Assembly (NCBI GenBank): GCA_965215195.1
Contig: CBDCDC010000002.1
Location: forward strand, 96,001-160,000
Origin: Candidatus Latescibacterota bacterium
Lineage (GTDB): Bacteria > Latescibacterota > UBA2968 > UBA8231
DNA length: 64,000 nucleotides
Direction of reading: 5' to 3'
Shown here: positions 3,668-37,978 of the stretch, piece after piece
Position numbering within the stretch: position 1 is the stretch's first letter
How the letters are laid out: every line of letters begins with the position of its first letter
Notes under the pieces: model-generated
What the model was told of the DNA's origin: nothing
Database searches by the model: none
Seen by the model: the letters and a program-made list of their open reading frames with translations, nothing else
Position numbers and translations under genes: made by a program

Positions 3668-3705
3668 TGCGTCAGCGGACAGCAGGTGTTCGCCAGCGGA
3701 CAGTA
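3668..3705. promoter_or_regulatory. Two 17-bp boxes at 21-bp period; putative enhancer for the 3506 promoter
   Basis: TGCGTCAGCGGACAGCA and TTCGCCAGCGGACAGTA, with the same spacing and similar distance as the 1332-1390 boxes. Confidence 0.5.
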
Positions 3706-3716
3706 GGAGAGCGCCT

Positions 3717-5120: not shown

Positions 5121-5123
5121 GTC

Positions 5124-7247: not shown

Positions 7248-7265
7248 GAAAACCTCGCTCTGCCT

Positions 7266-13296: not shown

Positions 13297-13339
13297 TGCA
13301 AGTGCGAGAACGCAACATAATAGAAACGAGAAGAACACA

Positions 13340-22369: not shown

Positions 22370-22374
22370 GGTGC

Positions 22375-23730: not shown

Positions 23731-23815
23731 AGGCACAGATTGATTAGGAGGAAGGGAAATGATACATTGGGGCCACAGAGCGAGCAAGACATCATCAACC
23801 AAGGAGACATGCGAC

Positions 23816-24763
23816 ATGGACCTAGCCCGAGTGGGTTTGGCGCGCGCCGGTGCGCGGCGGGCCAACGTATATCAAGCGCTAAATTGGGTGCGCGAGGACG
23901 TCGAGCCTAAGCTGGCCGCCCAAGTGATGCTCAAGCCGAACTTCCTGTCCAGCGAAAATCCCCTCGCCTCAACCCACGCCGACGCCATGCGCGGTGCGAT
24001 TGACTTCCTGCTCAGCGCGGCGCGGCCACCCGAGGAGATCGTCATTGCCGAAGGCGGCAACGAGAAGTATTCGGGCGAGGCGTTTGCCAATTTCGGCTAT
24101 GGCGCACTCGTCGAAGAATACCCGCTGCCGATTCGCTTGGTCGATCTGCATCAGGAGACGCGGTGGGAAGAGACCACAATTCACATGGCCGGCGGCGTTG
24201 AGGCGACCGTGCGGATGCCGAGCGCGGTGCGCGAATGCCCCTGCACCATTTCGGTGGCCGTGGCCAAAACCCACGACGTGTGCGTGGTCACGTTGGCGCA
24301 GAAGAATATGATCATGGGGACGCTGCACAAAGAGGATCGCATCAAGATGCACGGCTATCCCTCGCACGCCGAGCGCGTGTTGCCCAGCGAAGCCGAGGTG
24401 CTCAACGTGAACTTGATTCGCTTGGCCCAGTACCTCAAGCCGGACATTGGGATCGTCGATGGCACGGTGGGCTTGCAGGGCAATGGCCCCGGGGGAACCG
24501 ATGCTGTTCCTATGGGTGCAGCCGCGGCATCGGCCGATGTGTTTGCCGTGGATGCGGTCGTGGCCAAGGCCATGGGCTTTGAGCCGATGGAACTGGGCCT
24601 TTTGCACTACGCCGACACCTTGGGCTACGGCGTGGCTGACTTGGAGCGGATCGAGGTGCGGGGCGTGCCCATTGCCGAGGTCGCCTGTGCCTTCAAGCCG
24701 CACGCGACGACCGCGCAGCAGATGCAGTGGCGCAGTGCGGCAACAGCGCAGTTTTTGCCGTAG
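23816..24763 (+). CDS. DUF362 family protein
   Basis: LKPNFL...TH, KTH...TLAQKN, IVDG..G.QGNGP, DVFAVD. Confidence 0.8.
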   Translation: MDLARVGLARAGARRANVYQALNWVREDVEPKLAAQVMLKPNFLSSENPLASTHADAMRGAIDFLLSAARPPEEIVIAEGGNEKYSGEAFANFGYGALVEEYPLPIRLVDLHQETRWEETTIHMAGGVEATVRMPSAVRECPCTISVAVAKTHDVCVVTLAQKNMIMGTLHKEDRIKMHGYPSHAERVLPSEAEVLNVNLIRLAQYLKPDIGIVDGTVGLQGNGPGGTDAVPMGAAAASADVFAVDAVVAKAMGFEPMELGLLHYADTLGYGVADLERIEVRGVPIAEVACAFKPHATTAQQMQWRSAATAQFLP

Positions 24764-24781
24764 GGAGTGTTGGAATCCGCA

Positions 24782-26089
24782 ATGCGTATAGACCGCCTCG
24801 ACATCCAGAATTTCCGCTGCTTTGCAGACCAGGCGTTTGTCTTTGACCCCCGATTTACCTTGCTGATCGGCGCAAACGGAACCGGTAAAACGGCAATTCT
24901 CGACGCCTTGGCCGTTGCCTTGGGGGCTGCATTGATCCCGATTCCCCATGTACAGAGCAGGGGGATCGGCCATCGAGATGTTCGTCGCACCTATCGATTC
25001 ACGGGTGAGACCGGACACTTTGTGGAACACTATCCGGCCCGCATTGAGGCGAGCGGAACCGTTGGGGAAAGGGAACTGGTTTGGGTGCGCGAGTTGAAGT
25101 CTGCAAAGTCCCAGACGACCCGGGCAGGAGCTTATGCAATCAGGCAAGCAATGGGGGACTTGGTCCGTCGAAGCACTGACAACGATCGCATCGCTTTCCC
25201 CTACATCGGCTACTACGGCACTAACAGGTTTTGGCTTGAGCAACGGTCAACAGCTAAAGGAAAAGTCGATCCGGTCGGGCGTAGTTCGCGCTACATTGGT
25301 TATCAGACTTGCCTAACCCCAATCTCGTCCACGCGGTACCTAACCGCATGGGTCAAGCGCCTCGCCCTCATTGAGGCCCAGCGGAGGGAACGCCTAAAAA
25401 CGCTTCACGCCGTTTACAAGGCCATTGCCGCTTGCGTCGAGGATGCCATCGCCGCGGAGTTCGACTTTGAAGAAGATGACATCGTCGTTGAGTTTGGCAA
25501 AGACGCCCACATTCCCTTTCAACTGTTGAGCGACGGCCAACGAAGTATGGCGGCCATTGCTGCCGACATGGCCATGCGCTGCTCCCAACTCAACCCGCAC
25601 CTGAACGAACGAGTGCGCATGGAGACCCCCGGCATTGTGTTGATTGACGAGCTCGATCTGCACCTTCACCCACGATGGCAGCGCGGCGTCATAGAAGACT
25701 TGCTCGAGACGTTTCCCCGGCTGCAGTTCATCGCGACTAGCCACTCTCCGTTTGTCATTCAGTCCGTACATCAGGGCGGTGTAATCAACCTCGATCAGGG
25801 CGATGACGGCCCCGAGACGCCGGAGTTGCAGAGCATTGAGGATGTCGCCGAAAACGTCATGGGCGTTGACCTGCCGCAACAAAGCCTGCGTTTTCAGAAA
25901 ATGGTGGCCGCGGCCGAGGAGTATTATCGTCTCATTGAAAGTAGTTCAACTGAGAACGACTCGGAGGTCAAAGCCCTCCGCGAGCGACTTGACGAACTGG
26001 AAGAACCCTTCGCAGACAATCCGGCCTATGTCGCATTCTTGCGCTTACAGAGGACGGCCAAAGTTGGACCAACTCATGCGCAGAGTTGA
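24782..26089 (+). CDS. ABC-type ATPase, PtuA/Septu-like
   Basis: GANGTGKT, LSDGQR signature, LIDELDLHLHPRWQ, ATSHSP. Confidence 0.85.
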   Translation: MRIDRLDIQNFRCFADQAFVFDPRFTLLIGANGTGKTAILDALAVALGAALIPIPHVQSRGIGHRDVRRTYRFTGETGHFVEHYPARIEASGTVGERELVWVRELKSAKSQTTRAGAYAIRQAMGDLVRRSTDNDRIAFPYIGYYGTNRFWLEQRSTAKGKVDPVGRSSRYIGYQTCLTPISSTRYLTAWVKRLALIEAQRRERLKTLHAVYKAIAACVEDAIAAEFDFEEDDIVVEFGKDAHIPFQLLSDGQRSMAAIAADMAMRCSQLNPHLNERVRMETPGIVLIDELDLHLHPRWQRGVIEDLLETFPRLQFIATSHSPFVIQSVHQGGVINLDQGDDGPETPELQSIEDVAENVMGVDLPQQSLRFQKMVAAAEEYYRLIESSSTENDSEVKALRERLDELEEPFADNPAYVAFLRLQRTAKVGPTHAQS

Positions 26090-26702
26090 GCGAGGACCGT
26101 GGCCTCTGGACGACGCGAACAACCCCAAGAGTTTCCAGCCTTACAACAAAGCAAAGGCCGATCTGCTCAGCAGACTCGGCGAATACTGTAGCTATTGCGA
26201 GCGCCTAGGCGACCTGCACGTCGAACACGTCGTTCCCAAGCGTTATCGGCCCGACTTAGAGCAAGAGTGGACGAATTTTTTGCTCGGCTGCGCGAACTGC
26301 AACGCAATCAAGGGCGATAGAAACCTTTCCCGGAACGGCTACATGTGGCCGGATCAAGACGACACCGAGGCCGTCTTCTCCTATTTGCCCGACGGAATTG
26401 TTCGAGTGCGAGACGATCTTTCCGAGCCAATCCGAACAAAGGCGCAGAAGTTGTTTGATCTCGTCGGACTCGGCCGTTGTCCGGTAAATGAGTCCCGGGC
26501 GCGGGATTTGAGATGGCGCAAGCGCCGCGAGGCGTGGGGGCTGGCCAAGTCCGCACAGCAGCTAGTCAAACAAGGAGCCGATATTGACTGGATGATCCAG
26601 TTGGCGAAGGCAGTTGGCTTCTTCTCAGTATGGATGACTGTATTCGCCGACGATCCTCAGATGTGTGATCGCCTGCGCCGGAGCTTCCTTGGGACGCGAT
26701 GA
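26076..26702 (+). CDS. HNH endonuclease, PtuB/Septu-like
   Basis: YCSYCE, VEHVVPK, W.NFLLGCANCNAIKG; overlaps the ATPase stop. Confidence 0.85.
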   Translation: MRRVERGPWPLDDANNPKSFQPYNKAKADLLSRLGEYCSYCERLGDLHVEHVVPKRYRPDLEQEWTNFLLGCANCNAIKGDRNLSRNGYMWPDQDDTEAVFSYLPDGIVRVRDDLSEPIRTKAQKLFDLVGLGRCPVNESRARDLRWRKRREAWGLAKSAQQLVKQGADIDWMIQLAKAVGFFSVWMTVFADDPQMCDRLRRSFLGTR

Positions 26703-26903
26703 AAGGCAGTTTCACGATGTATGCGTGATGACCACGCAATTCAACGGCGTAGTAGCTCCAGTAGCGCGAGGCGTCAATGGCGCGTTTTTGCTGGGAAGCG
26801 TTGGTTTAGGGTAACATTTTGCGTCGGCACAGGTGTTTCAAGGAACGAAAAGACAGCATTTAAGAGCCTATCCCTTTCGGGGCAATTCTAAATAGGACCA
26901 ATC

Positions 26904-29900
26904 ATGACGCCACTCTATTTCACCGCTTGCGCTCATCCGCGAGTTGCTCCTGCCCTAGCGACCCAGGGCCGCGAAAGCCTGCGACCCTACACTGCGTACC
27001 TGAAGTCCGCGCTCGCTGCCGCCAAGAAGCGCGAGTCGCGGTCGGTGTGCCGGTGGGAGCCCGTCCCGCGGGAATATCCACTGCGGCTCACCCCGATGGA
27101 CTCGCTCCTAATCATGGAAGCCGAGGGCTTCAGCTACCGCCTCAAAGGCTGGTCGGGCGACGCGCCGGGCATGCCGTTGTTCGTCGGAGACCAGTACCGG
27201 CCGATGACCCCCAAGCGCGTTGAGCAAGTTGCCGACGGATTGCTCCTCGTGCTGGACAGCGAGGTTGACCCTGACGATCAAGTCTTTTGGGCGGGCAGGT
27301 CCTGCACATTGACTCCCGCAGATCCGATTTGGCCGGCGGAGTTGGTCGCACGGCGTCTCGACAGCACGGTCGCGCACCTGTTCCAACGCAGGGAAGCAGA
27401 CAGAAATGTCTTCCTAGTCGTCGAAGGCTGTGCCCCTTTTGTCCTCGAAGACGAGCATGGCACCGAGTTGCCCCATCGGGTGGCCGAGCCCCATGAAGAT
27501 GCCACGCGCCTCCATGTCGGCAGAGAGGAGATCCTTTGGACCGGCCAGCGAACCCTGACGCTGGAGAAACCGCCAGATCAAGACGTCCTCCTCGCCGACA
27601 ACGGTGTCCGGTGGCGTTGGTCGGACGACGGAGGTCGTGGCCGGCGACAGCGCGGGGTCTGGGTTCAGCTCCTGCCTCCCGACGAGGTGGACAGCGAGGC
27701 GACCTTGGACATCCGGGCGGCGTACATGGAGGAGGGCGTTCGCGAAGTTCGGACGAAAAAGGGCAACAACCCCCAGCATGCTTTCAAGGTCTGGGGATTC
27801 CGCCGCGACAACTACCAGCTCGAGTTAGAGCGGCTCCCACCCGAGGGATCGACCTTGTTCATTCCGTCTAGCACTTCGGGCCTACAACGCCAGCAGCAGA
27901 CGGTGTTCCGTTTCATGGGCAGCCCATTGCCCCACCATGGTGCCCTTCTAAGACTCTGCGAAGCACCCGACAAGGTCCGTTGGCCGAGGTGCATACCAAA
28001 GGCCGTTTCCCACTGGCACTTGCTTGACGACGAGCGTTGGTCGGGCACCATCCAGCAGCGGGAGTTCGTAGAAAAGGCCCTTGGCACGGAGGACTTCGCG
28101 TTTCTCGAAGGACCGCCCGGATCGGGCAAAACCCACGCCATCTGCGAGTTGGTGCTCCAGTTCATCGATCAAGGACTAAATGTGTTGCTCTGCTCCACGA
28201 CCCATGTCGCCGTGGACAACGTACTGGAGCGGCTCGTCGGTAAGTTCGAGCAAGTTGAGGCCGTGCGTATTGGACTTGCGGACCGAGTGGACCAAACCAT
28301 CCGCAAGGTGCAAATTGATGAGCGCATCTCGGCCTTGGCGAAAACTTGGCGCGACGCCGGAACCTTCGCCAACTTGGACGATGACGCCTTGGAGAGAGTC
28401 GCCGAGACGACGATCCTATCATCCGTGAACCTCACCTGTGGCACGTCCACGGGCATCCTCGCACACCCCTATATAAGGCGCGAGAACGACACAGGGCCGC
28501 GTTGGCCTTACTTTGATGTCCTGATCATTGACGAAGCTAGCAAGACGACCTTCCAAGAATTTCTAGTCCCTGCCCAACTCGCCCGCAAATGGATCATAGT
28601 CGGCGACGTCCGGCAACTCCCGCCCTTCTCTGAGCCTAAAGACCTCGAAGCGAGCATTGCCGAAGTCAGCGACGAGAACGCCGCAACGTTCTCCGACGCC
28701 CATCAGGCGGCACTGCTGATCCTGTTCCGTCTCCAACGCCCGGAAGCGGGGGTCAGGAGGGTCAGGTGGTTGATCGAGGAGTCGGACGATGTACTCGACG
28801 CGCTGAGTGCGGAAATTAAGGCTCGGGTTGTACGCGACGACCCTACGCCAGAGATCGTGCGGGTTGTCCGGGGCCAGTCCGCAGGTAATGAGGTGTCCAT
28901 CGCCGACATTGAGGCTGGCCAACCCGTGGCGCTGTACTTGTCGACAGCCGATTGGATTCTCTTTTCACCTGAGTTGCGGAGTCGCGTTGAGCCCTATCTA
29001 CCGCCGGACGGACTCGCGCTAAGCGACTGGGCCCCGGATTCGATCCGTGCGTACCGATTCGTACACTGGCTCAACCAACGAGGCCGCTTCAACAGGCCCG
29101 TTCGAGAGCGGCGGCAGCGTTTCCAAACCGCCGATGAACTGGCTGCCCGCCAGCAGTCCTTCCTGCGCGAGGAATCTTGGGCCAAGCAAATATCGTGGCG
29201 ACTCGGGAGGGTTCACCAACTTGCCAGTGCTCGAGACGATAGACAGCGTGAACGACGCCAAGGCGAGGTTGATAGCCTTATGCCCGCTGTGGATCCCTAT
29301 TCTAAATGGGTGCCCCCGGCCATTGACGCAATCCGGGATGTCGGAGTTCGCAGCGTGATTGAGTCCTTCCGGGTGCGTAGGAGCAACCATCGGGTTCGCC
29401 GCCTGAGTGCCCTCACCGAGGCACTTCCACCGGATGTTTGGAAAGAGCGGGCGGTGCTGATCGAGTACCAGCACCGTATGCATCCGGACATCTCAAAACT
29501 ACCGCGAGACCAGTTCTACGAGGGAGAGGCACTGAAGGACGCAAATACCCTTGATGAGCGCGACAAACGAGATGGTTGGTCTTTCATGCCCAAGGTGCCT
29601 GCGCGACGAGTGTGGGCGGATGTGCGCGGCCGTGAGGACCGTGGCGTCAACCACGCCGAGATCAAAGCTATGCAGGACTGGTTGGAGGCTTGGAGAGATT
29701 ACGCCAAAACCCACCCGAGAAACGATGGCAAGGACTGGACGGTGGCCTGTCTCTCGTTCTACAACCGGCAGGAATTGGGGACGCGGGACATGCTCCGGCG
29801 ACTCACCGGAAGACATCGTGCTGAGACGCGCTTCCCGCTTCCCAATACAACGATTGTGTGCGCAACGGTTGACCGATTCCAAGGCCGAGAGGCCGACCTC

Positions 29901-30098
29901 GTGTTGCTGAGCCTCAGAAACACCTCGAGGCCCGGTCATATGGACAGCCCCAATCGGCTGAATGTCGGGATTACCCGAGCCCGGTTCCTGCTCGTCGTCT
30001 TTGGACACCGGAAGTACTTCGCCGAGGATTGCCCGTCCGAGGAACTCAACGCGCTTGCAGAGGCCACGCCGTTGTTCAATCTTGGGAGTATGCGATGA
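26904..30098 (+). CDS. Upf1/DNA2-NAM7-like SF1 helicase with a long unknown N-terminus and a large internal insertion
   Basis: GPPGSGKT, IIDEAS, VGDVRQLPP, YQHRMHP, TVDRFQGREAD, RLNVGITRAR. Confidence 0.9.
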   Translation: MTPLYFTACAHPRVAPALATQGRESLRPYTAYLKSALAAAKKRESRSVCRWEPVPREYPLRLTPMDSLLIMEAEGFSYRLKGWSGDAPGMPLFVGDQYRPMTPKRVEQVADGLLLVLDSEVDPDDQVFWAGRSCTLTPADPIWPAELVARRLDSTVAHLFQRREADRNVFLVVEGCAPFVLEDEHGTELPHRVAEPHEDATRLHVGREEILWTGQRTLTLEKPPDQDVLLADNGVRWRWSDDGGRGRRQRGVWVQLLPPDEVDSEATLDIRAAYMEEGVREVRTKKGNNPQHAFKVWGFRRDNYQLELERLPPEGSTLFIPSSTSGLQRQQQTVFRFMGSPLPHHGALLRLCEAPDKVRWPRCIPKAVSHWHLLDDERWSGTIQQREFVEKALGTEDFAFLEGPPGSGKTHAICELVLQFIDQGLNVLLCSTTHVAVDNVLERLVGKFEQVEAVRIGLADRVDQTIRKVQIDERISALAKTWRDAGTFANLDDDALERVAETTILSSVNLTCGTSTGILAHPYIRRENDTGPRWPYFDVLIIDEASKTTFQEFLVPAQLARKWIIVGDVRQLPPFSEPKDLEASIAEVSDENAATFSDAHQAALLILFRLQRPEAGVRRVRWLIEESDDVLDALSAEIKARVVRDDPTPEIVRVVRGQSAGNEVSIADIEAGQPVALYLSTADWILFSPELRSRVEPYLPPDGLALSDWAPDSIRAYRFVHWLNQRGRFNRPVRERRQRFQTADELAARQQSFLREESWAKQISWRLGRVHQLASARDDRQRERRQGEVDSLMPAVDPYSKWVPPAIDAIRDVGVRSVIESFRVRRSNHRVRRLSALTEALPPDVWKERAVLIEYQHRMHPDISKLPRDQFYEGEALKDANTLDERDKRDGWSFMPKVPARRVWADVRGREDRGVNHAEIKAMQDWLEAWRDYAKTHPRNDGKDWTVACLSFYNRQELGTRDMLRRLTGRHRAETRFPLPNTTIVCATVDRFQGREADLVLLSLRNTSRPGHMDSPNRLNVGITRARFLLVVFGHRKYFAEDCPSEELNALAEATPLFNLGSMR

Positions 30099-31192
30099 AG
30101 GCCAGCCTCAAAACAGAAGTCGAGATCCGAGACATCGTGGTGTTCGCCGAGATCGCCGTGTGGGAGAAGAGACCAGACCTTCAGGTTCTGTGCGCTACGG
30201 CTCAGGCTCAAGGTGCTCTCAACGGAGACGCGGTTGATACTGTCCTACCGGGACTGTCATGTCGTGCAAGGGAAAACCTGCTGCGCCACTTGCGCTACAT
30301 TGGGCTTGTTCGGAACGGAGCACTTACCGCCCTCGGACGCCGTTGTGCATCGTCGGGCGAGGCCCCCGCTTGGGAGCAGGGTGTATATCGCCTGCTCGTG
30401 GCATCCCATCCGCTCTTTGATAGCCATGTCCTTGACTTCAGACGCACCCCCGGCGATTGGCGTGACCGCGACTTCGACAACCACGAGCCACTTCCGTCAT
30501 GGCTCTCGCCCAACCGTGACCGAGTGTTCACGTCGATATTCCAGTCGAAGCGGTTCAACATATCGAGATTCCCGGCATCACAAGGCCAAAATCCGGTCTG
30601 CCGCATCGAAGGTATGACCACGGGAAAGTTGCAGTGGGATATTGACCTCGCGTCAGGCGACAACAAGTGGACGATAGAAGGACAGGTGAGCGGAGACTGG
30701 AACCGGCGAGGCAAGTTCCAGTCCGCGCCTGAGTCGGTAGAGCCGGGAAAGTTGGTCGATATTTTCGCGGACTGGGAGCCGCAATGGGATATGCAAATGG
30801 GTCGCCTCGCCATGGAGTATGACGGCAAGATCGGGCAGGGCGGACGCGAGTCGTTCCGGCGGTCTCGGCAGTACAATGATAAGCAGGTCAGGAATTTTGG
30901 CCCGTTCGATGAGATCGTGGTCCGAGATGTACCGGTCAGCCCGGCAACGAAGGATGATGCTCGCACTTGGGCAACCGCCATCCTCGTCGCTCGATCCGAG
31001 GCCGATGATAGCTATATAGTGCCCGACGGTTGGCGGGCGGAGTGGTCAAATGTTATCGAAAATACCCCGCTGGCAGAGTGGGCCGGAGATGCCCCCGATC
31101 TGGTGGCACTCTCCGAGGTAAACGGCCGATCCCTCGCCGCCCGGACGAGGTGGCTGCTCGCCGCGGGTACTGATCTGGAGATGGGGACATAA
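30095..31192 (+). CDS. Hypothetical protein (possible N-terminal winged helix), coupled to the helicase
   Basis: ATGA overlap with the helicase stop; LRHLRYIGLV...LTALGRR is wHTH-like. Confidence 0.75.
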   Translation: MKASLKTEVEIRDIVVFAEIAVWEKRPDLQVLCATAQAQGALNGDAVDTVLPGLSCRARENLLRHLRYIGLVRNGALTALGRRCASSGEAPAWEQGVYRLLVASHPLFDSHVLDFRRTPGDWRDRDFDNHEPLPSWLSPNRDRVFTSIFQSKRFNISRFPASQGQNPVCRIEGMTTGKLQWDIDLASGDNKWTIEGQVSGDWNRRGKFQSAPESVEPGKLVDIFADWEPQWDMQMGRLAMEYDGKIGQGGRESFRRSRQYNDKQVRNFGPFDEIVVRDVPVSPATKDDARTWATAILVARSEADDSYIVPDGWRAEWSNVIENTPLAEWAGDAPDLVALSEVNGRSLAARTRWLLAAGTDLEMGT

Positions 31193-33444
31193 TGCGTAGC
31201 GGACCGATCCAACCCGAAAAGGTAAAGAAACCGATTAACCTGAGGGCGGAGGAGCTTCCGCTTTGGGAACATGGCAAGGGCGCGAACATCGACCTTCCTT
31301 GGACCGAATTGAACCGTCCCGACGCCCTCAATGAGGTGCAATCGCTCGTGAAGAATGCTCGCAGTGTCGTCGTCGCGATCGGTGCGACGAAGCCTTCTCT
31401 TGCACTGCTCAATGCTGTCTTTCAGTCTCTTGTTGCGCCTTGCCGACTCTACATCTATGGGGACCGCGCCCTTGAGGCCGACGCTGCATTGGTTCAAAAG
31501 ATCGCGGGCATGGGCGACCGGGTCCTCGTCCGCTTGGGACATCGCCCACCTGCGGACTGGCTCATCGTTGATCAAGGACGCGACGGGCACCTTGTCGTAG
31601 GGCCTACCGCCGAGCACCGAAGATGGGTGATCCCCGTCGGCGACGCCTTGGCGCGGTCGTTGTTTGAGGCTTTTTGTGTGCTGTTTTGGTTTCACACAAC
31701 GAAAGAGGCTCTACCGGACGCTAACGGCGATGTCGCTTTCCGTCCCCCGCTGGAGGCACCGTTCAACTCCCCTGATACCGACACTGACATCACACTCCCG
31801 GCTGGTAGGCTCTGGCTTGACGGAGACCTTGACGATCCAATTCCTGATGCCGAGTTCCGAATTTCACCGAACGCTTCGGATCCTGGACGTGCGCGGGTGC
31901 TGTTCGTTCCTCCCACTAGCGACTTGGCGAGCGGCGGGACAGGTGGCACCGTTGACATCGAACTCCCGACGGAGCTCTGCCGCCGAGGGCACCGAGTGCT
32001 GTGGGTTGACACTGGCCTTCCGAGGACGACGGTTACACGTCAGCGCATAGTTATGGATCTTGTAGAAGCACAGATCGCAATCCAGCTCGAATGGCCCCGC
32101 AGCGAGGCGATAAATCTCTTCCACGGTCTCAATCGCATGGCCCAGCAACCCACTTGGGAGTTCCATCCTGCGCGGCGGCTCGACGCCGTCAAGGGTAAGG
32201 TGCTATTGGACAGAGCAACGCAGCCTGACAAGATCGTCCGGTCTGTCTCGCTGGACGCTGGCGATGTGGAAGTGCCGCTGCTGGACTTCGACTCTGCCCG
32301 GCCCGCTCGCTTTCCCGACATCCCACCCCTCGCCTTGGAAGCGACCATCCAGTGGCGGCGAGTACCGGCTGCTTTGCCGCCGGGTGCCCGCCGCGCCGAG
32401 ATAGTCCGCCGTTGGACAGCAGTGGATGAGTGGACGTCACGGACAGTGGAAAGCCTCCGCGACGAGCTTAACGCGCTTGAGAGTCAAGAAGGACTGTTGA
32501 GCCGGCTTCGCCAATGGCTCCCGTCGCGGGATGGGAACTTGGCCTCGGAACGCGAACAACTCCGCGACGAGCTTGACGAAATCGGCGAGTCGCCTCCAAG
32601 TCAGATAGCGGATCAGGCTAAGGATCGCATGAGACGCCTCGCTGAGATCGCCAGCCGTTTGGATGGATTGCGGCGTACCACCCACGACCAGCGGCAGGCC
32701 GCCGAGGATGCCAAAGAGGAAGAAAGTCAAAGAGATAGCTGGGAGAAGCGCATCGAAGATGCCAAAGCCAAGCTGGAAGAAGTTCGACAGAAGCTAGCGG
32801 AGAACGAGGAAGCCCAAGGCAAGGCGGAAGAAAGACGGCAAGAAGCACAGACTGCCCTTGATAACGTTGTGGCTTCCAAACGCCAAGATCGGGAGGTATT
32901 CTTGGAGAAGGAGCGGGTCGATCTCGAAGCAAAGTTGGAGGAAGTACGCACACACCAGAAGTCCCTCAAAGACGGCAAGGGCCGGTCATCCAAGTCGGAA
33001 CGGAGGGAGGCGAACCGCCACGTGAGCGACGCGAAACAGGCAGCCGCCCGCAACAAGCAGGACCGCGAGAGCATGGCGGATTGGTCTCCGCCCGCATCAG
33101 AGCTTGGCGAGGCGTCCGTGCTTCTCAATAAGGCGGAAAAGGAGATCTCCACCCTTCGGTCTCAAGCAGACAGTCTTTCCAAGGAGAGCAAGAAACACAA
33201 TCGCGCCGCGTCGGAAGAATTTCGTTTCGAGAAACTGCCTCGGCTTTCAGGGCCGTCGATGAGCGAGGTGGATTCGCACCCGCCTATTCCGTCAGAGGCA
33301 CCGCCTGAGATAGGGGAGCTCTACGAACATCGCGGAGAGCGCTTTCTCTCCATCCGCACATGGGAACAGCTTAGGCCGGCGGAGCCTGTTGCGAAACGAC
33401 TTCATGCCAAACTCGTGGCTGTCGCGAACCCTTCAAATACGTAG
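31192..33444 (+). CDS. Hypothetical protein: degenerate PLD-like N-terminus plus a long coiled-coil C-terminal half
   Basis: TAATG overlap; HRPPADWLIVD...FCVLFW resembles a decayed HxK-x4-D PLD motif; about 250 aa E/K/R/Q-rich heptad region. Confidence 0.7.
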   Translation: MRSGPIQPEKVKKPINLRAEELPLWEHGKGANIDLPWTELNRPDALNEVQSLVKNARSVVVAIGATKPSLALLNAVFQSLVAPCRLYIYGDRALEADAALVQKIAGMGDRVLVRLGHRPPADWLIVDQGRDGHLVVGPTAEHRRWVIPVGDALARSLFEAFCVLFWFHTTKEALPDANGDVAFRPPLEAPFNSPDTDTDITLPAGRLWLDGDLDDPIPDAEFRISPNASDPGRARVLFVPPTSDLASGGTGGTVDIELPTELCRRGHRVLWVDTGLPRTTVTRQRIVMDLVEAQIAIQLEWPRSEAINLFHGLNRMAQQPTWEFHPARRLDAVKGKVLLDRATQPDKIVRSVSLDAGDVEVPLLDFDSARPARFPDIPPLALEATIQWRRVPAALPPGARRAEIVRRWTAVDEWTSRTVESLRDELNALESQEGLLSRLRQWLPSRDGNLASEREQLRDELDEIGESPPSQIADQAKDRMRRLAEIASRLDGLRRTTHDQRQAAEDAKEEESQRDSWEKRIEDAKAKLEEVRQKLAENEEAQGKAEERRQEAQTALDNVVASKRQDREVFLEKERVDLEAKLEEVRTHQKSLKDGKGRSSKSERREANRHVSDAKQAAARNKQDRESMADWSPPASELGEASVLLNKAEKEISTLRSQADSLSKESKKHNRAASEEFRFEKLPRLSGPSMSEVDSHPPIPSEAPPEIGELYEHRGERFLSIRTWEQLRPAEPVAKRLHAKLVAVANPSNT

Positions 33445-33471
33445 CAGATCAAAACAACTTCAACACGGAGG

Positions 33472-33505
33472 AGAATCAATGGAACACGAAGAATCAATGG
33501 AACAC
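33472..33505 (+). repeat. 16-bp direct repeat duplicating the start codon region of the vWA gene
   Basis: agaatcaatggaacac at 33472 and 33490 gives two in-frame ATGs (33479, 33497). Confidence 0.85.
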
Positions 33506-34195
33506 AAACTCCCAGGCGGGCCGATCGCGAACAGGCCCCTCCATTTCATCTTTCTCGCAGACTGCTCGTCCTCAATGTCGGGCGACAAGATTCAAGCACT
33601 CAACCACGCGATCAGAGAAGCCATCCCACACATGCGGGATGTCGCGCACGGCAACCCGAACGCCGAGGTTCTGGTGCGGGCGATCAAGTTCTCGGCCGGT
33701 GCCCAATGGCACGTTTCGCAGCCGACGAATGTCGATGAGTTCGAGTGGACCGACCTCTCGGCCTATGGCATGACCGAAATGGGACGGGCCCTGTCTCTGG
33801 TCACTGACGCGCTCAAGACCCCGCCCATGCCGGAGCGTGCGCTACCTCCTGTGTTGGTGCTCATCAGTGATGGACAGCCCACGGACGACTTCGAGGGAGG
33901 GCGGCAAGCCCTGATGGACGAACCTTGGGGCAAGAAGGCTGTGCGCCTCGCGATCGCCATTGGCTCGGACGCGGATATCGATGTCCTTCAACGCTTCATC
34001 GGACACCCAGAGATCCAACCGCTGCAAGCCAACAACGCTCAAGATCTGGTCAATTATATCCGCTGGGCGTCCACCGCAGTTCTTCAGGCTGCCTCCGCGC
34101 CAGCGAGCCAGACATCGAATGCTCCGGCCGGGGTCAACGTACCACTGCCTCCGTCCCCAAAGCCCGATCCCGCAGACGCCAGTGACGTCTGGTAG
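33479..34195 (+). CDS. TerY-like vWA domain protein
   Basis: RPLHFIFLADCSSSM (MIDAS DxSxS), T, SDGQPTD; GGAGGAG RBS. Confidence 0.88.
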   Translation: MEHEESMEHKLPGGPIANRPLHFIFLADCSSSMSGDKIQALNHAIREAIPHMRDVAHGNPNAEVLVRAIKFSAGAQWHVSQPTNVDEFEWTDLSAYGMTEMGRALSLVTDALKTPPMPERALPPVLVLISDGQPTDDFEGGRQALMDEPWGKKAVRLAIAIGSDADIDVLQRFIGHPEIQPLQANNAQDLVNYIRWASTAVLQAASAPASQTSNAPAGVNVPLPPSPKPDPADASDVW

Positions 34196-35111
34196 CCGCG
34201 AAATCAGCCGAGGCCCTACATTCGCCATTGAGCGCGTCATCGGTGCGAACCACCTGCGGGACGGCAAGCCCTGCCAAGATGAAGTAGGGGTCTTTGCAGT
34301 CGCCGATACCGTGGCCGTGGCTGTCGCTGACGGCCATGGTACGAGCAAACACGCCGATGTCGGTGCCTGGCTCGCAGTCCATGTGGCTCTTACCGCGCTC
34401 GTGCAGTTCGCCGGGAATCTAGGTGAACGTGCTTCAAATCTGGTGGAGGTCCAGAAGTACGCCGAACATCCTCTCCGCGTTCAGATCGTCCGGGAATGGA
34501 CGGCGCAGGTTCGCGCCAAGGCTGGAGACGACGAAACGCCGCTCTTGGATTATGGCTCGACAATTTTGGCCGCCCTAGCAACGCCGGACTTCCTGCTCAT
34601 CGGACAACTCGGTGACGGCGACATCCTACTCGTCGCCGAGGATGGAACAGTCGAGGTCCCACTACCCGCCGACCTTGCGGCGTTTGCCGACGAAACTCCC
34701 AGCCTGTGTCTGCCGGAGGCATGGCACTCACTCCGTGTGCGAGTCCTGCCGACACCGAGGCAAGAGACGCTTCTCCTGCTTTCGACCGATGGGTACAGCA
34801 AATCGTACCCCACAGACGCCGACTTCAGGCAGATTGGCCCCGATTATCTCGACCTCATACGCAAGGATGGGGTCTCCGGCTTAACCCCTCACTTGAGGGG
34901 CTTCCTCGAAAAAGTCACCACCCAGGGGAGTGGTGATGACATTGCCCTCGCGCTTCTCCACTGGCCGCCACCGGATTCTCCCGTCGTCTTGTCGGATGGC
35001 GATTCGCCCATTGGGGACGCCGAGATTCAGTCAGATCTAACTGGGAAGGAAGAGGATGCGAGCTCGCTTCCGGGAGAGACGGGGCCTCTGAGTGCCAAGC
35101 GAGCGAAATAA
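34182..35111 (+). CDS. PP2C-like phosphatase of the TerY-P triad
   Basis: G.NH....PCQD, VADGHG, GDG, STDG, GDD. Confidence 0.88.
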   Translation: MTSGSREISRGPTFAIERVIGANHLRDGKPCQDEVGVFAVADTVAVAVADGHGTSKHADVGAWLAVHVALTALVQFAGNLGERASNLVEVQKYAEHPLRVQIVREWTAQVRAKAGDDETPLLDYGSTILAALATPDFLLIGQLGDGDILLVAEDGTVEVPLPADLAAFADETPSLCLPEAWHSLRVRVLPTPRQETLLLLSTDGYSKSYPTDADFRQIGPDYLDLIRKDGVSGLTPHLRGFLEKVTTQGSGDDIALALLHWPPPDSPVVLSDGDSPIGDAEIQSDLTGKEEDASSLPGETGPLSAKRAK

Positions 35112-35126
35112 GAACGAAAACTCGAA

Positions 35127-36428
35127 ATGATGGAGAAATCACCAATGCAAAAGCCAGAATTACTGAAAACCGCTGACGGAACGCGCATCACCGCCGACAG
35201 CCTGCTTGGTCAGGGAAGCCAAGGCGAGGTCTGGAAAGCCACTGACGGCGGGAAGCCTGTTGCGGTGAAGGTCTATCACCGAAATACGGCTACCCCGGAA
35301 CAGAAGGCGGTACTTGAGCGGTTGGTCGAAAAAGGTCCGCCTGCACCGCACTTCCTGTGGCCGCTGGCGATGGTGGAGGATACCCGGTCAAAAACGTATG
35401 GTTACATCATGGATCTCCGAGAGCCTAACTTCCGGGCACTCGAAGATTTCATGGCACGGCGGATCCGCCCATCAATGTGTGCATTGCTCACGGCTGGCAG
35501 GAAACTCGCAAATGGCTTCCTCCGCCTCCATAGCCATGGTCTTTGCTATCGGGACATTTCCTTCGCCAATGTATTTTTCGATCCGCAGACCGGGGACATC
35601 CGCATCTGCGACAACGACAACGTCGACATAACGGGTACCGAAACGGGCGGTGTGCTGGGTACCCCGCGTTTTATGGCCCCCGAGGTGGTACGCAGAGAGA
35701 AGCCACCATCTGCTGATACTGATCGCTATTCGCTGGCGGTACTACTGTTTTTTCTTTTGTACGGTGGGCACCCCCTCGACGGTCAACGAGAGGCAAATAT
35801 CCGCTGTCTTGATGTTCCTGCCTACGAGCGACTCTACGGCTTCGCCCCGCTTTACATCTGGGATCCGGACGACGATTCCAACCGTCCCGTCCCCGGCATT
35901 CACGTCAACCCCATCGCTTTTCACGGCATGTACCCGGAGGCACTGACCGCCTTGTTCCAGCGGTCATTCACGGACGGGTTGCACTACCCGTCCAAGCGCG
36001 TACGCGAGTCGGAGTGGCGGAATGCCTTTGCCAGTACCATTAACAGCATCTGGCTTTGCGTGTGCAGTGCCGAAAATTTCTATGAGCCGACGGCAACGTC
36101 CGGTGGCAAGCACTGCTGGGCCTGCAAGAAGTCGCTGGTTCTCCCACCGCGCATCAAAATTGGCGACGACATTGTTTTGCTCAACCGCACTACCCAACTG
36201 TTCGGCTACCATGTCGGCTCGACTCGAGACGACGACACCCCGATCGCGGAAGTAGTTCAGAACCCCCAAGTTCCGCATCTCTTCGGCCTGCGAAACCTGA
36301 CAGCAGAGAAGTGGACACTGACCAAGCCGGACGGGGCAGTGGTTGATGTTCCCTCCGGCCGTGCAGCGTCGATTCTGAATGGCAACCGTATCAACTTCGG
36401 GCTGCAAACAGGGGAGGTAAGGGTATGA
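35127..36428 (+). CDS. Ser/Thr kinase of the TerY-P triad, with zinc-ribbon and FHA-like tail
   Basis: LGQGSQGEV, VAVK, YRDISFAN, CDNDN, GTPRFMAPE, CVC...CWAC. Confidence 0.9.
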   Translation: MMEKSPMQKPELLKTADGTRITADSLLGQGSQGEVWKATDGGKPVAVKVYHRNTATPEQKAVLERLVEKGPPAPHFLWPLAMVEDTRSKTYGYIMDLREPNFRALEDFMARRIRPSMCALLTAGRKLANGFLRLHSHGLCYRDISFANVFFDPQTGDIRICDNDNVDITGTETGGVLGTPRFMAPEVVRREKPPSADTDRYSLAVLLFFLLYGGHPLDGQREANIRCLDVPAYERLYGFAPLYIWDPDDDSNRPVPGIHVNPIAFHGMYPEALTALFQRSFTDGLHYPSKRVRESEWRNAFASTINSIWLCVCSAENFYEPTATSGGKHCWACKKSLVLPPRIKIGDDIVLLNRTTQLFGYHVGSTRDDDTPIAEVVQNPQVPHLFGLRNLTAEKWTLTKPDGAVVDVPSGRAASILNGNRINFGLQTGEVRV

Positions 36429-36553
36429 TTCCGGTGGACGTCAGCGTCACCTAAGTGGCTATAGGCGAGTGTCAGTCGCTCCTTGTGCCTTGTTGCACGG
36501 AGTCGTAACTTAGCAAAAAAAAGAGACTTAGCTCGACAAAGGACGCTTCCGCC

Positions 36554-37978
36554 ATGACGCCCCCCAACATCCTCTGGATTTGCACGGATCAGCAGCGCTA
36601 CGACACCATCGGCGCACTCGGTTATTCCCACGTTGATACGCCGCACGTCGATCGACTGGTGGCCGAGGGAGTGGCCTTTACCCACGCCTATTGTCAAAGC
36701 CCGATCTGCACGCCGAGCCGGGCGAGCTTTCTCACCGGCCAGTACGCCAGTGCCGTCCACATCAACGGCAATGGCCTCGATAGTTTTCCCGACCACCCGC
36801 CGCTTGTCACGCGGATATTGGCCGAGGCCGGGTACGACTGCGGCCTGATTGGCAAGCTGCACTTGGCCAGCGCCTATGGCCGCATTGAGCCGCGCGTCAA
36901 TGACGGGTATCGCTACTGGGAATACAGCCACGCGCCCCGCGACGACTGGCCGCAGGGGCACGGCTATGCCGACTGGGTGCGGGAAAGGGGGGAAGTCTTA
37001 GGCGAGCTGATGAAGCAATACCCCCACGGCCTGCCCGCCGAGTTCCACCAGACGACGTGGTGCGCCGAGAAAACCATTGAGTTCATGGGCCAAAAGCGCG
37101 ACGGCCCTTGGCTGGCCAGCGTCAATATCTACGACCCGCATCCACCGTTCAATCCGCCGCAGAGCTACCGCGACCGCTTTGACCCAGCGGCCATGCCCGG
37201 GCCGCTGTTTGCCGACAGCGATTTGGCGCAGCAGGAAAAGCTAGCGGCGATTGATTTCCAGTCCAAGGGACGGCGGCCCGACCAGCTCGACATTCGCGAC
37301 CCCTTGCACCAAGACCGCCCCACGCCCGGGGCCGACGCCCGCGTGTTGCAGGCCGCGTACTGCGCGATGATCAAGCAGATCGACGACCAAGTGGGCAGGA
37401 TGCTGGCCGCGCTCGAAGACATGGGTCAGCGCGACCATACCGTGGTGATTTTTACGTCCGACCACGGCGAAATGCTCGGCGATCACGGGCTGATCCAGAA
37501 GGGATGCCGCTTTTACGAGGGCTTGGTGCGGGTGCCGCTGATCTTTTCTTGGCCGGGGCACTTTGAGCAGGGCTTGGTGCGCGGCGATCTGGTTGAGTTG
37601 ACCGACAAAGCACCGACGCTTTTGGAACTGGCCGGGCTGGAGGTGCCGGAGCGGATGACTGGCCGCTCGCTCTTGCCGATTTTGCACGGCGAAAGCGCGG
37701 CACCGCACCGCGACTTCGTCCGCTGCGAGTACTACGACGCGCTAGCCGCGCCCGATGGAACCTTTGCCACCATGTACCGCGACGAGCGCTACAAGTTAGT
37801 GCTCTACCACGGGCACGACTTGGGCGAGCTGTACGACTTGGAAGAGGATCCGGGTGAGTTTGAAAACATGTGGGACGAGCCGCAAGCGCAGCCGCTCAAA
37901 TTGGAGCTGATGCAAAAGAGCTTCGACGCTTCGATGCTGGCCATGGACCGGGGCCCCCGGCGCGTGGGGCCGATGTGA
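36554..37978 (+). CDS. Cys-type sulfatase
   Basis: PNILWICTDQQR, CTPSR, GKLH, SDHG. Confidence 0.93.
   Translation: MTPPNILWICTDQQRYDTIGALGYSHVDTPHVDRLVAEGVAFTHAYCQSPICTPSRASFLTGQYASAVHINGNGLDSFPDHPPLVTRILAEAGYDCGLIGKLHLASAYGRIEPRVNDGYRYWEYSHAPRDDWPQGHGYADWVRERGEVLGELMKQYPHGLPAEFHQTTWCAEKTIEFMGQKRDGPWLASVNIYDPHPPFNPPQSYRDRFDPAAMPGPLFADSDLAQQEKLAAIDFQSKGRRPDQLDIRDPLHQDRPTPGADARVLQAAYCAMIKQIDDQVGRMLAALEDMGQRDHTVVIFTSDHGEMLGDHGLIQKGCRFYEGLVRVPLIFSWPGHFEQGLVRGDLVELTDKAPTLLELAGLEVPERMTGRSLLPILHGESAAPHRDFVRCEYYDALAAPDGTFATMYRDERYKLVLYHGHDLGELYDLEEDPGEFENMWDEPQAQPLKLELMQKSFDASMLAMDRGPRRVGPM

Follow-up and report, generated by a model that had tools for sequence, protein, structure and literature searches.

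A six-gene helicase and TerY-P cassette from a Latescibacterota bacterium is probably related to the anti-phage systems Mokosh and CoCoNuT

RESULTS

Organization of the six-gene operon

Six adjoining genes in a 64,000-nucleotide stretch of Candidatus Latescibacterota DNA (the window) have, in our judgment, about an even chance of being a single mobile composite conflict unit, most likely anti-phage, in which a helicase trio is coupled to a phospho-switch. The six genes (g1 to g6) are co-oriented and tightly joined on the plus strand from 26904 to 36428, and all the open reading frames were found at the coordinates listed here.

26703..26903, plus strand: intergenic leader of 201 nt from PtuB (Septu) to g1; presumed operon promoter region, judged from sequence
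26904..30098, plus strand: g1, Upf1-like SF1 helicase, 1064 aa (Pfam AAA_11/AAA_12)
30095..31192, plus strand: g2, adaptor, 365 aa, winged-helix and beta-rich domains (AF2/VIA fold)
31192..33444, plus strand: g3, pseudo-PLD with coiled coil, 750 aa (AF2, Foldseek, VIA)
33479..34195, plus strand: g4, TerY-like vWA protein, 238 aa (Pfam VWA_2)
34182..35111, plus strand: g5, PP2C-family phosphatase, 309 aa, GTG start (Pfam PP2C_2)
35127..36428, plus strand: g6, Ser/Thr kinase, 433 aa, four-Cys zinc ribbon (Pfam Pkinase)

The g1/g2 junction reads ATGA (30095-30098) and the g2/g3 junction TAATG (31190-31194); a 34-nt gap with GGAGGAG ahead of the ATG at 33479 separates g3 from g4, g4 and g5 overlap by 14 nt (34182-34195), and 15 nt precede g6 at 35127. 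Coordinates and junctions were read directly and bore out the original prediction of six co-oriented genes with overlapping or tiny junctions. Its domain calls for the helicase, vWA, PP2C, and kinase proteins were confirmed by Pfam, which left its two unknowns without a family. A consensus scan of the operon found no sigma-70-type promoter (shuffled sequences, mean of 2.6) and no excess of terminator-like sites (7 versus 8.3 in shuffles), with no terminator in the g3/g4 gap. In the leader, the scan found no sigma-70 consensus; a terminator-like hairpin lies at 26771-26783, 3' of the upstream gene.

Conservation as one unit

All six genes were present, in identical order, in each of the 10 genome loci and each of the 3 metagenome loci of sufficient length; these 13/13 loci are spread over several phyla, with g2/g3 identity as low as 36 to 50%. 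The arrangement is far beyond chance, and since all 13 loci fall in one clade, the co-occurrence represents one evolutionary event inherited repeatedly rather than 13 independent ones. Across loci, g2 and g3 evolved fastest (36 to 81% identity) versus the most conserved gene, g4 (vWA, 77 to 91%), and no seventh conserved gene was found, no flanking ORF family being common to more than 2 of 14 loci. The part of the original prediction that called this one composite system thus stands insofar as one inherited unit is concerned. That a Mokosh-like helicase trio and a TerY-P triad of the stand-alone sort are two independent systems, merely lying side by side, is improbable. Defense systems do cluster in islands, and each module was found alone elsewhere (trios at L033-L035 and at CARF-linked loci, triads at L022 and L023). 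However, the 13 loci hold both modules in one order while their flanks all differ, identity drops in step over all six genes, and the modules are separated here by only 34 nt that carry a ribosome-binding site and no terminator found in the scan.

Genomic setting

Septu lies directly upstream (PtuA, 6.6e-135; PtuB, 3e-69), and the cassette neighbors are Septu, DUF362, sulfatase, and FdhD genes. In genomes of the same genus, the DUF362 gene abuts the sulfatase gene in 2/6, and other inserts occupy the site in 4/6. The adjacent Septu and a site whose content varies within the genus mark the neighborhood as a defense island, and in some genomes this variable hotspot is empty. Homologues were found with TerY-P (13/13), an association on which the original prediction had depended. 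In the flanks of the other loci, defense-gene matches were single ones among 84 ORFs, a figure for the flanks together and not a per-locus count.

The setting also bears on whether the cassette is instead a phosphorylation-regulated host machine for RNA/DNA quality control or repair, with no role in defense, which is very improbable. In eukaryotes, Upf1-like helicases work in RNA surveillance, the cassette yielded no toxic domain, and the conserved neighbors XPB and DUF790 have a repair-like look, all of which would suit such a machine. Against it stand the patchy distribution (the g2 query matched in 2/41 related genomes, the g2-family profile in 8/168 genomes of the phylum), the hotspot left empty in some genomes of the genus, the adjoining Septu, and the occurrence of sister trios on plasmids and beside CRISPR cas1/cas2.

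The helicase

Pfam assigned AAA_11 (1.3e-30) and AAA_12 (4e-26) to g1, and its closest PDB sequences were SMUBP-2, SEN1, and UPF1, with DNA2 also matched. Helicase motifs I, II, III, V, and VI were kept in every homologue that covered them. In PADLOC, g1 matched the MkoA model PDLC03920 (1.8e-77), with residues 303-1043 aligned to model positions 543-1083 of 1112 only, i.e., the helicase half, leaving the kinase part of MkoA uncovered. An insertion of ~270 aa separates the two RecA-like halves, and an N-terminal region of ~290 aa has no assigned domain; for the latter, Atlas gave weak leads (0.83-0.90) to 1B beta-barrels only, and a profile search of PDB gave no match.

The g2 adaptor and its predicted contact with g3

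No Pfam, PADLOC, or NCBIfam family matched g2, nor did Pfam find a HEPN domain in it. The AF2 model of g2 (pLDDT 92), which had no Foldseek match in PDB at E<=0.001, predicts, from the N terminus on, a beta-hairpin, a winged helix (residues 25-88), middle domains that are rich in beta structure and have no assigned fold, and C-terminal helices. For the modeled winged helix, the VIA wide comparison indicated a MarR/PadR-type wHTH over residues 24-88 only (Z 8.3-6.7; best alignment, Z 8.3, rmsd 2.1, 62 aligned). Homologues of g2 formed 120 clusters at 90% identity, and the g2-family profile gathered 643 clusters at 50% identity. Members of ~540-590 aa are numerous and carry a C-terminal extension with an invariant His followed by a near-invariant Asp-Arg-Tyr, which weakly matched the PLD-like MIT_C (E 0.21), and two distant relatives have N-terminal extensions with weak HEPN matches (4.8e-4 and 4.5e-3). 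No link between g2 and an MkoB-like protein was detectable by hhalign (E 0.27).

When g2 and g3 were co-folded, ipSAE values of 0.82, 0.82, and 0.81 were obtained in three runs, versus 0.00 for the best of 3 controls, with at least 94% contact agreement between runs and a partner pLDDT of 84. In calibration, the ipSAE mark was reached by 58/80 solved complexes and 2/110 mismatched pairs, counts that are only roughly valid because the analysis's own alignments were used. In the predicted complex, the C-terminal helices of g2 dock on g3, and the predicted interface is made of invariant or near-invariant residues in both families. Binding of g2 to g3 is therefore predicted from the co-folding models.

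A degenerate PLD fold in g3

Sequence-family searches (Pfam, PADLOC, NCBIfam) gave only weak coiled-coil matches for g3, and the PADLOC MkoB model matched nothing in the cassette. The AF2 model (pLDDT 88.8) comprises a two-lobed PLD fold (~31-345), a coiled coil of ~270 aa (~403-673), and, at the C terminus, a small conserved domain (~700-745). Foldseek matched PLD4, PLD3, Streptomyces PLD, F13, Zucchini, and NucT in PDB (E 3e-6 to 7e-4; probability 1.0 for the best), and VIA aligned 251-264 residues within 31-345 (Z 14.5, rmsd 3.3-4.4). HxK(x)4D is absent from both lobes, and column counts over 70 sequences showed no His/Lys pair in either; H117 was kept in only 42/70. In a weak hhalign match to an active relative (probability 2.5%), the relative's HAK stands opposite a gap in g3. 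Fold and absent HKD motifs together sustained the earlier description of the 750-aa protein as a degenerate PLD. Because both HKD motifs are missing, the PLD nuclease effector of Mokosh style that had also been implied is unlikely in this branch; with the PLD degenerate, nothing in the cassette could be assigned a nuclease or any other toxic activity.

The vWA/PP2C/kinase triad

The TerY-P triad is said to have been described by Anantharaman and colleagues in 2012, and g4 to g6 share with it the adjacency of genes for a TerY-like vWA protein, a PP2C phosphatase, and a Ser/Thr kinase, their motifs intact. In g4 (VWA_2, 2.3e-7; VWA, 3.8e-6), the MIDAS site (DxSxS, Thr, Asp) was intact in 14/14 sequences; homologues of g5 (PP2C_2, 9.6e-43) keep the DGHG and DG motifs; and g6 (Pkinase, 4.7e-22) retains the VAVK Lys, YRD, DxD, and APE motifs. 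The g6 kinase ends in a zinc ribbon (CxC...CxxC, 14/14 sequences) followed by a beta-rich tail. In PADLOC, g4 and g5 had no match at E<=0.01, and g6 matched the mad6 and PD-T4-6 models as well as MkoA positions 17-222. The cassette differs from other TerY-P triads in that its triad is welded permanently to a helicase trio and in that its kinase bears a zinc ribbon, whereas the validated stand-alone form is described with an OB fold.

Divergent helicase/g2-like/PLD trios

Proteins were compared in eight divergent g2-like loci (L020, L021, L033-L036, L041, and L042). A helicase lay directly upstream in 8/8, and a PLDc_2-type protein lay downstream in seven, with a g3-like pseudo-PLD in the eighth; a ninth locus, plasmid L043, has the identical four-gene layout by annotation only. 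An RtcR-like CARF-AAA-HTH gene follows the trio in 5/9. Homology of g2 to a plasmid "hypothetical" protein was found by BLASTP (3e-8) and hhalign (89%, E 2.2e-6, 302 columns). The Vibrio and Pontibrevibacter plasmid cassettes of this kind, and those of other genomes, share with ours a helicase (33-40% identity), an adaptor of equal length, a two-lobed PLD, gene order, and overlapping junctions. They differ in that the PLD keeps a normal HxK motif (PLDc_2, 3.1e-23) and has no coiled coil, the helicase is without the 290-aa N-terminal extension, and a CARF-AAA-HTH regulator (PADLOC RtcR_PspF1, 9e-126 to 4.5e-209) takes the fourth position in place of TerY-P. At L041, on a 9.2-kb contig, a trio with a g3-like pseudo-PLD has no TerY-P gene in the remaining 1.8 kb downstream, which suggests that TerY-P is an add-on to a trio that can exist by itself. 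From these gene orders, g1 to g3 constitute a separate module. The helicase recurs beside homologues of g2 and g3, with TerY-P at 13/13 loci and with CARF instead in the sister lineage. The front module, which the original prediction did not recognize as a named system, does have known relatives (the MkoA-like helicase and the CoCoNuT layout).

DISCUSSION

In Mokosh type I, MkoA and MkoB provide a Upf1-like helicase (COG1112), a PLD-fold partner, and a Ser/Thr kinase, as summarized for that system (Millman et al. 2022; 10.1101/2022.05.11.491447), and the cassette has all three. It differs in that its kinase is encoded by a gene of its own within the triad, with no fusion to the helicase, in that g3 lacks the active site that the Mokosh PLD is described as needing, and in the extra adaptor gene, g2. 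CoCoNuTs of Type II and of Type III-A combine a UPF1-like helicase, a winged-helix partner that carries or recruits a nuclease domain, and TerY-P with a kinase-zinc ribbon, accompanied by the defining McrBC homologues CnuB/CnuC (Bell et al., eLife 2024, PMC11090510). By this published description, the features shared are an SF1 helicase with a large insertion, a TerY-P triad with a kinase that terminates in a zinc ribbon (frequent, not core), and relatives linked to RtcR-like CARF regulators; the next protein in CoCoNuTs, which has a winged helix and coiled-coil regions and carries a nuclease-type domain, has a candidate counterpart in g2 plus g3. In that account, CnuH carries a helical insertion and, at its N terminus, SmpB-like and RelE-like domains, where g1 has a helicase with its ~270-aa insertion, and CnuE joins an elongated wHTH to one or more HEPN domains, where g2 has a modeled wHTH. 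The same authors state that CnuH relatives are "typically" followed by wHTH-effector genes, a full survey being beyond the scope of their paper. The cassette differs from CoCoNuTs in that it ends at g6 without McrB/McrC homologues, has no HEPN found by Pfam, divides adaptor and PLD-fold part between two genes, and has a catalytically degenerate PLD fold.

The signal might run in reverse within a composite system, with the g1-g3 complex as sensor and the TerY-P kinase as output, aborting infection; this is possible but rather unlikely. The kinase would then phosphorylate host or phage proteins, PP2C would be a safety catch, and the coiled coil would serve signaling. Because TerY-P-like triads are reported as stand-alone defense (PMC11090510, citing Gao et al. 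2020), the kinase as output fits equally well, and a related triad without any helicase lies on a Methylomonas plasmid (vWA 69% identical). The loss of the g3 HKD motifs, against full retention of those of the kinase, the phosphatase, and the MIDAS site, points the same way, as does the rapid evolution of g2 and g3 relative to vWA, which is expected of phage-facing parts. Arguing against the reversal are the L041 trio without TerY-P beside it, the description of TerY-P as accessory by the CoCoNuT authors (PMC11090510), and the sister lineage, which carries a transcriptional regulator as its fourth gene and so favors a regulatory role for that slot.

For the composite unit controlled by a phospho-switch, which we favor, we infer substrate, direction of control, phosphorylation target, and toxic output as follows. 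The g1 helicase would act, 5' to 3', on phage-derived RNA or single-stranded DNA, and the g2 adaptor would hold the first lobe of g3 through its C-terminal helices. The PLD partner would be an ordinary HKD nuclease in the sister lineage; in the cassette lineage, both HKD motifs would have been lost and the ~270-aa coiled coil and small C-terminal domain gained. Because both motifs are gone, g3 here would be a scaffold or nucleic-acid-end binder and not a nuclease, and the toxic output may lie in the 290-aa N terminus of g1 or the beta-rich middle of g2. The triad would be a fixed add-on that sets the machine on or off by reversible Ser/Thr phosphorylation, with the g5 phosphatase holding the off state while the cell is uninfected and a partner peptide being clamped by the MIDAS site of the vWA protein. 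Eukaryotic UPF1 is controlled by SMG1 and PP2A, and by analogy we would guess that the helicase or g3 is the phosphorylation target. Gene g2 represents an adaptor that stands outside the existing Pfam, PADLOC, and NCBIfam families, and the cassette that contains it, which has no name of its own, is most likely related to the anti-phage systems Mokosh and CoCoNuT rather than a new category.

Organization and conservation of the six-gene cassette

The original prediction of a composite helicase/two unknowns/TerY-P anti-phage operon was built on six tightly joined plus-strand ORFs, and both their positions and their junctions were borne out when ORFs were called and the junctions were read in the sequence. 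The cassette comprises a "trio" (g1 to g3) and a TerY-P "triad" (g4 to g6), as follows.

26904-30098, + strand: g1, translated ORF, putative helicase
30095-31192, + strand: g2, translated ORF, 365-aa putative adaptor
31192-33444, + strand: g3, translated ORF, 750-aa PLD-fold protein
33479-34195, + strand: g4, translated ORF, vWA protein
34182-35111, + strand: g5, ORF with GTG start, PP2C phosphatase
35127-36428, + strand: g6, translated ORF, kinase-zinc-ribbon protein

Read directly, the g1/g2 junction is ATGA at 30095 and the g2/g3 junction is TAATG at 31190. A gap of 34 nt, with a GGAGGAG ribosome-binding site ahead of g4, separates g3 from g4, while g4 and g5 overlap by 14 nt and g5 and g6 lie 15 nt apart. 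A leader of 201 nt follows the 3' end of the upstream gene. No sigma-70-type promoter was found within the cassette stretch by consensus scan, and terminator-like sites there were no more frequent than in shuffled sequences.

One genome per species was scanned with a narrower alignment, which reaches relatives of at least 50% identity. MAGs bearing the labels Latescibacterota, Gammaproteobacteria and Rickettsiales contributed 10 loci, and the six genes were present in identical order in all 10. A metagenome scan that included more distant members gave 7 loci, of which the 3 that were long enough again held six genes; the others were one duplicate of a locus already counted (L005), which was dropped, one ending inside g3 and two that were too short. 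The layout was thus found in 13/13 sufficiently long loci. Identity to the window was 77-91% for the vWA protein, 62-86% for the kinase, 57-85% for the helicase, 54-77% for PP2C, 41-81% for g2 and 36-74% for g3, dropping in step across the six genes, though unevenly. Since the six-gene loci form one clade, the count reflects stable co-inheritance and not repeated independent association. No family of flanking ORFs was common to more than 2 of 14 loci; therefore, the unit consists of exactly six genes, without a McrBC-type partner. The cassette is a real, conserved and mobile six-gene unit, the function of which is probably anti-phage.

Genomic setting

Directly upstream of the cassette is a complete Septu system (24767-26702).

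24767-26089: PtuA (PADLOC, 6.6e-135)
25803-26702: ORF of PtuB with HNH domain (PADLOC, 3e-69), true start probably near 26076

In the window's genus, DUF790-XPB-DUF362 on one flank and a sulfatase gene on the other are conserved. DUF362 directly adjoins the sulfatase gene in 2/6 same-genus genomes inspected, and the other four carry inserts of approximately 1 to 5 kb of different content, PtuA or PtuB remnants included; in the window, the insert amounts to 11.8 kb and consists of Septu and the cassette. The g2 query was matched in 2/41 related genomes and the g2-family profile in 8/168 genomes of the phylum and in 3/401 sampled in another phylum. Single PADLOC matches (E<=1e-10) among 84 flanking ORFs of 12 other loci, taken over all 84 ORFs together, were to HmaB/C, TmtA, methyltransferases, DrmA/D, a type III restriction enzyme, PD-T4-6 and MkoA. 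This pattern is that of an accessory cassette that is mobile and resides in defence islands.

Compared with the corresponding same-genus sites (L044-L049), the DUF362-sulfatase site (window 24763-36554) is a variable hotspot. It is empty in genomes G005 and G001; G018 has a PtuB remnant there, G022 has a PtuA remnant, and G144 and G009 carry other inserts. In G144, G019, G002 and G013, the initial 270 nt of the sulfatase gene recur approximately 0.75 to 1.7 kb upstream of its full copy, and these additional copies may be scars of repeated insertion. On the minus strand at 21146-23865, an XPB-type helicase (ResIII, Helicase_C, XPB_DRD; PADLOC PbeA, 1.4e-56) adjoins a DUF790 protein (7.3e-122), a pair that resembles archaeal XPB-Bax1. 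The pair is kept at 89-96% identity across the six same-genus genomes inspected and is therefore core, not mobile. Elsewhere in the window, a 217-aa ORF at 20143-20796 had no Pfam match and matched PADLOC PDC-M19A (5.4e-11) and a type I specificity subunit (2.3e-4), and the stretch 12001-14000, with a G+C of 0.518 against approximately 0.60 to 0.65 around it, may be foreign DNA.

The putative helicase and the g2 family

Judging by its sequence, g1 (1064 aa; Pfam AAA_11 and AAA_12) is a Upf1-like SF1 helicase; among solved sequences, SMUBP-2, SEN1, UPF1 and DNA2 come closest to it. Motifs I, II, III, V and VI of the helicase were kept wherever covered in the window and up to 14 homologues. The PADLOC MkoA model matched g1 at 1.8e-77 over the helicase part alone (model positions 543-1083 of 1112). 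In NCBIfam, g1 matched a "PLuB system helicase-like protein" below threshold, a name on which no paper was found in the literature searched. In the ESM Atlas, g1 residues 1-380 and 1-290 scored 0.83-0.90 to UPF1/SMUBP-2 1B barrels, which are weak leads only. The first approximately 290 residues of g1 are absent from the helicases that accompany apparently active PLD proteins in related loci; for most of these loci, the alignment starts between g1 residues 263 and 302, and for L034 it starts further on.

Searches of Pfam, PADLOC and NCBIfam gave no family for g2. Its AlphaFold2 model, made with 114 homologues, was confident (pLDDT 92) and matched nothing in the PDB (Foldseek, E<=0.001). In a wide structural search, residues 24-88 resembled a MarR/PadR-type winged helix (rmsd 2.1, 62 aligned, and a best Z of 8.3, a range that the tool deems common), an assignment made because approximately fifty winged-helix proteins cover the same 64 residues; the winged helix was all that this search returned, with the beta-rich remainder barely probed. 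Profile searches of PDB sequences gave coiled-coil or chance matches only, whether made with g2, its long variants, g3 or the g1 N-terminus (approximately 290 residues).

At 90% identity, g2 forms 120 clusters and g3 forms 81, nearly all from unnamed metagenome assemblies and none with a Pfam domain on record. A g2 profile search reached 643 clusters at 50% identity, 297 of them at 1e-10. Many family members are 540 to 590 aa long and carry a C-terminal extension of approximately 190 aa, with an invariant His followed by a near-invariant Asp-Arg-Tyr, that weakly matched the PLD-like MIT_C family (E 0.21). In a large subfamily of g2-like proteins of this length (among P0125 and P0225-P0342), the consensus of the extension is "RVLLCDRYVRG...PHDRYL...MSNSPL". 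Two members, P0329 and P0335, have an N-terminal extension instead, with weak HEPN matches. Since g2 homologues adjoin PLD proteins and also carry fused extensions, g2 behaves as an adaptor, carrying or recruiting nuclease-type domains.

The pseudo-PLD protein g3 and its predicted contact with g2

Apart from weak coiled-coil matches, g3 (750 aa) matched no Pfam, PADLOC or NCBIfam family. Its model (pLDDT 88.8) has a two-lobed PLD fold, and the top Foldseek matches were PLD4, PLD3, Streptomyces PLD, vaccinia F13, Zucchini and NucT (E from 3e-6, probability 1.0). A second structural search placed residues 31-345 among PLD folds (Z 14.5); the first lobe alone matched Nuc/NucT (Z 11.9) and the PLD-like domains of TrmB/TrmBL2, which are non-catalytic (Z 12). 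Past this fold lie a helical region (approximately 403-673) and a small conserved domain (approximately 700-745). Neither lobe contains an HxK(x)4D motif. The sole nearby His, H117, was kept in 42/70 sequences, and the invariant residues of the family are Arg, Gly, Pro, Ala, Asp and Trp. The label "degenerate PLD", given to this protein before any database search, proved apt.

When g3 residues 1-400 were co-folded with g2, ipSAE was 0.82, 0.82 and 0.81 in three runs, and the best of three controls gave 0.00; the mark used is reached by 58/80 solved complexes and 2/110 mismatched pairs and is a rough guide here, own alignments having been used. Contacts agreed by at least 94% between runs, with a partner pLDDT of 84. 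In the predicted interface, g2 contributes its C-terminal helices (302-309 and 348-363) and g3 its first PLD lobe (57-60, 85-87, 108-112, 128, 159-166 and 174-194). R85 and Y87 on the g3 side were kept in 70/70 sequences, and W353, A357 and D360 on the g2 side are invariant or near-invariant. Moreover, long g2 variants have their fused PLD-like domain at the g2 C-terminus, the predicted g3-docking end. The modelling supports binding of g2 to g3 as a prediction.

The TerY-P triad

Pfam identified g4 as a vWA protein, g5 as a PP2C_2 phosphatase and g6 as a Ser/Thr kinase. Wherever covered (window and up to 14 homologues), the sequences retained the MIDAS residues of the vWA protein, the Asp motifs of PP2C and the Lys, YRD, DxD and APE motifs of the kinase, and a C-terminal CxC...CxxC zinc ribbon was present in 14/14 g6 sequences. 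The g6 kinase matched the PADLOC mad6 and PD-T4-6 models; g4 and g5 had no PADLOC match. A Methylomonas plasmid (CP157007.1, 13977-16880; L023) carries a kinase/vWA/PP2C triad in a different gene order and without any helicase. Its vWA protein is 69% identical to g4 and its kinase 44% identical to g6, the vWA protein being unusually conserved across contexts.

Related trios and the direction of signaling

The three top matches of g1 in a tblastn search of plasmids were from Vibrio rumoiensis, V. aerogenes and Pontibrevibacter. On all three plasmids, in one case by annotation only, lies a four-gene cassette encoding a helicase (843-909 aa), a "hypothetical protein" (365-369 aa), a PLD-like protein (506-510 aa) and a "sigma-54 interacting regulator". 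The "hypothetical protein" matched g2 by BLASTP (3e-8; 8e-4 over full length) and by hhalign (89%, E 2.2e-6, 302 columns) and is, on these alignments, a g2 homologue. The plasmid PLD looks active, being a normal PLDc_2 protein in which an HAK motif is present. Compared with it, g3 gave no BLASTP match and an hhalign E of 0.018 at 2.5% probability; because this sequence comparison failed, the kinship of g3 with PLD proteins rests on the fold. The regulator is an RtcR-like CARF-AAA-HTH protein (PADLOC RtcR_PspF1, 9e-126 and 4.5e-209), and one of these cassettes adjoins cas1/cas2.

Six more divergent loci (L033-L036, L041 and L042) have the order helicase, g2-like protein, PLD protein, with a CARF gene in two. 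In L041, the third protein is homologous to g3 and has no HKD (hhalign 82.6%, E 9.7e-6, 320 columns; C-terminal domain, 1.5e-7), and no TerY-P genes were found in the remaining 1.8 kb downstream. We dropped the idea that HKD loss is coupled to TerY-P gain, L041 being a pseudo-PLD trio without an adjoining triad. Yet another type of neighbor occurs in L033 (genome G087, 3588-8012), in which the genes after the trio are a 1474-aa ORF, which gave matches to a type I methyltransferase and a specificity subunit (2.2e-56), and a STAND-like NTPase.

As the likeliest mode of action, we propose that the trio would be a machine driven by its helicase, with phage RNA or single-stranded DNA as substrate, that its PLD partner g3 would have turned scaffold in the window's lineage, and that the vWA/PP2C/kinase triad would gate the trio through reversible phosphorylation. 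The searches assigned no toxic activity to the six proteins, and candidate sites of one are the g1 N-terminus and the middle of g2. In a serious rival, signaling would run in reverse: the trio would be the sensor, and the kinase would deliver the output. This rival would account for a g3 nuclease that is apparently dead, its HKD motifs missing, and for g2 and g3 being the fastest-evolving genes, and stand-alone defence has been reported for TerY-P-like triads (cited in PMC11090510). However, a CARF regulator fills the slot of the triad in the sister lineage, and the pseudo-PLD trio of L041 stands without a triad; for both reasons, a regulatory role of the triad is favored over a kinase output.

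Relation to known systems

According to the Mokosh report (10.1101/2022.05.11.491447), Mokosh combines a Upf1-like helicase with a PLD nuclease, the active site of which is required, and in type I the kinase is fused to the helicase. By that account, the cassette shares the helicase but has neither the kinase-helicase fusion nor an apparently active PLD. In the CoCoNuT study (PMC11090510), Types II and III-A encode CnuH, a UPF1-like helicase, together with CnuE and McrBC homologues; CnuE is a wHTH protein with a coiled coil and HEPN or, in Type III-C, two PLD domains; and Types II and III-A very often include a TerY-P triad with a kinase-zinc-ribbon protein, frequently beside RtcR-like CARF genes. 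The cassette resembles CoCoNuTs in its helicase, predicted wHTH partner, PLD theme, coiled coil and triad, but it is without the defining McrBC pair, and Pfam found no HEPN in it. The study states that CnuH relatives typically precede wHTH-effector genes, a full survey being beyond its scope (PMC11090510). No description of the six-gene layout was found in the literature searched, and an earlier TerY-P paper or the CoCoNuT supplement may list it. TerY-P contexts were reportedly first described by Anantharaman et al. in 2012. The cassette is best described as belonging among systems of the Mokosh, CnuH-CnuE and TerY-P kind.

A plasmid of Agrobacterium tumefaciens (NZ_CP039900.1, 4336-11150; L037) encodes a full-length MkoA kinase-helicase (8.5e-220) and next to it a 490-aa MkoB-like protein, which matches model positions 3-406 of 610 only and perhaps lacks the PLD part, a PP2C phosphatase and a DUF3800 protein. 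The g2 profile showed no link to this MkoB-like protein (hhalign E 0.27). L037 is a Mokosh-like variant with a phosphatase; therefore, the pairing of kinase and phosphatase with Upf1-like helicases is a recurring theme.

Implications

The cassette bridges Mokosh and the CnuH/CnuE part of the CoCoNuTs, until now described separately, and one helicase core appears to be wired to alternative control modules, either an RtcR-like CARF regulator or TerY-P. The PADLOC models applied name the helicase and kinase only, so annotation from these models may miss the whole unit. Its points of interest are a Pfam-less adaptor family, a putatively dead PLD scaffold and interchangeable regulators. The g2 family is conserved and confidently modelled yet absent from Pfam, PADLOC and NCBIfam; by fusion or predicted binding, it links PLD-type partners to Upf1-like helicases. 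From its motif loss, g3 would be a natural nuclease-dead PLD in an otherwise intact system and an entry point to the function of the TerY-P triad. It is conceivable, though we consider it unlikely, that bacteria have in this cassette an equivalent of the UPF1 phospho-cycle of eukaryotes: a Upf1-like helicase complex with a dead coiled-coil PLD scaffold would be read out or gated by the triad, and immunity would be achieved via phosphorylation, not nuclease. If so, the g2 family (643 clusters) would be a general adaptor of Upf1-like helicases to interchangeable effectors, namely, active PLD, HDRY PLD-like, HEPN and pseudo-PLD, throughout a broad, as yet unnamed class of systems.
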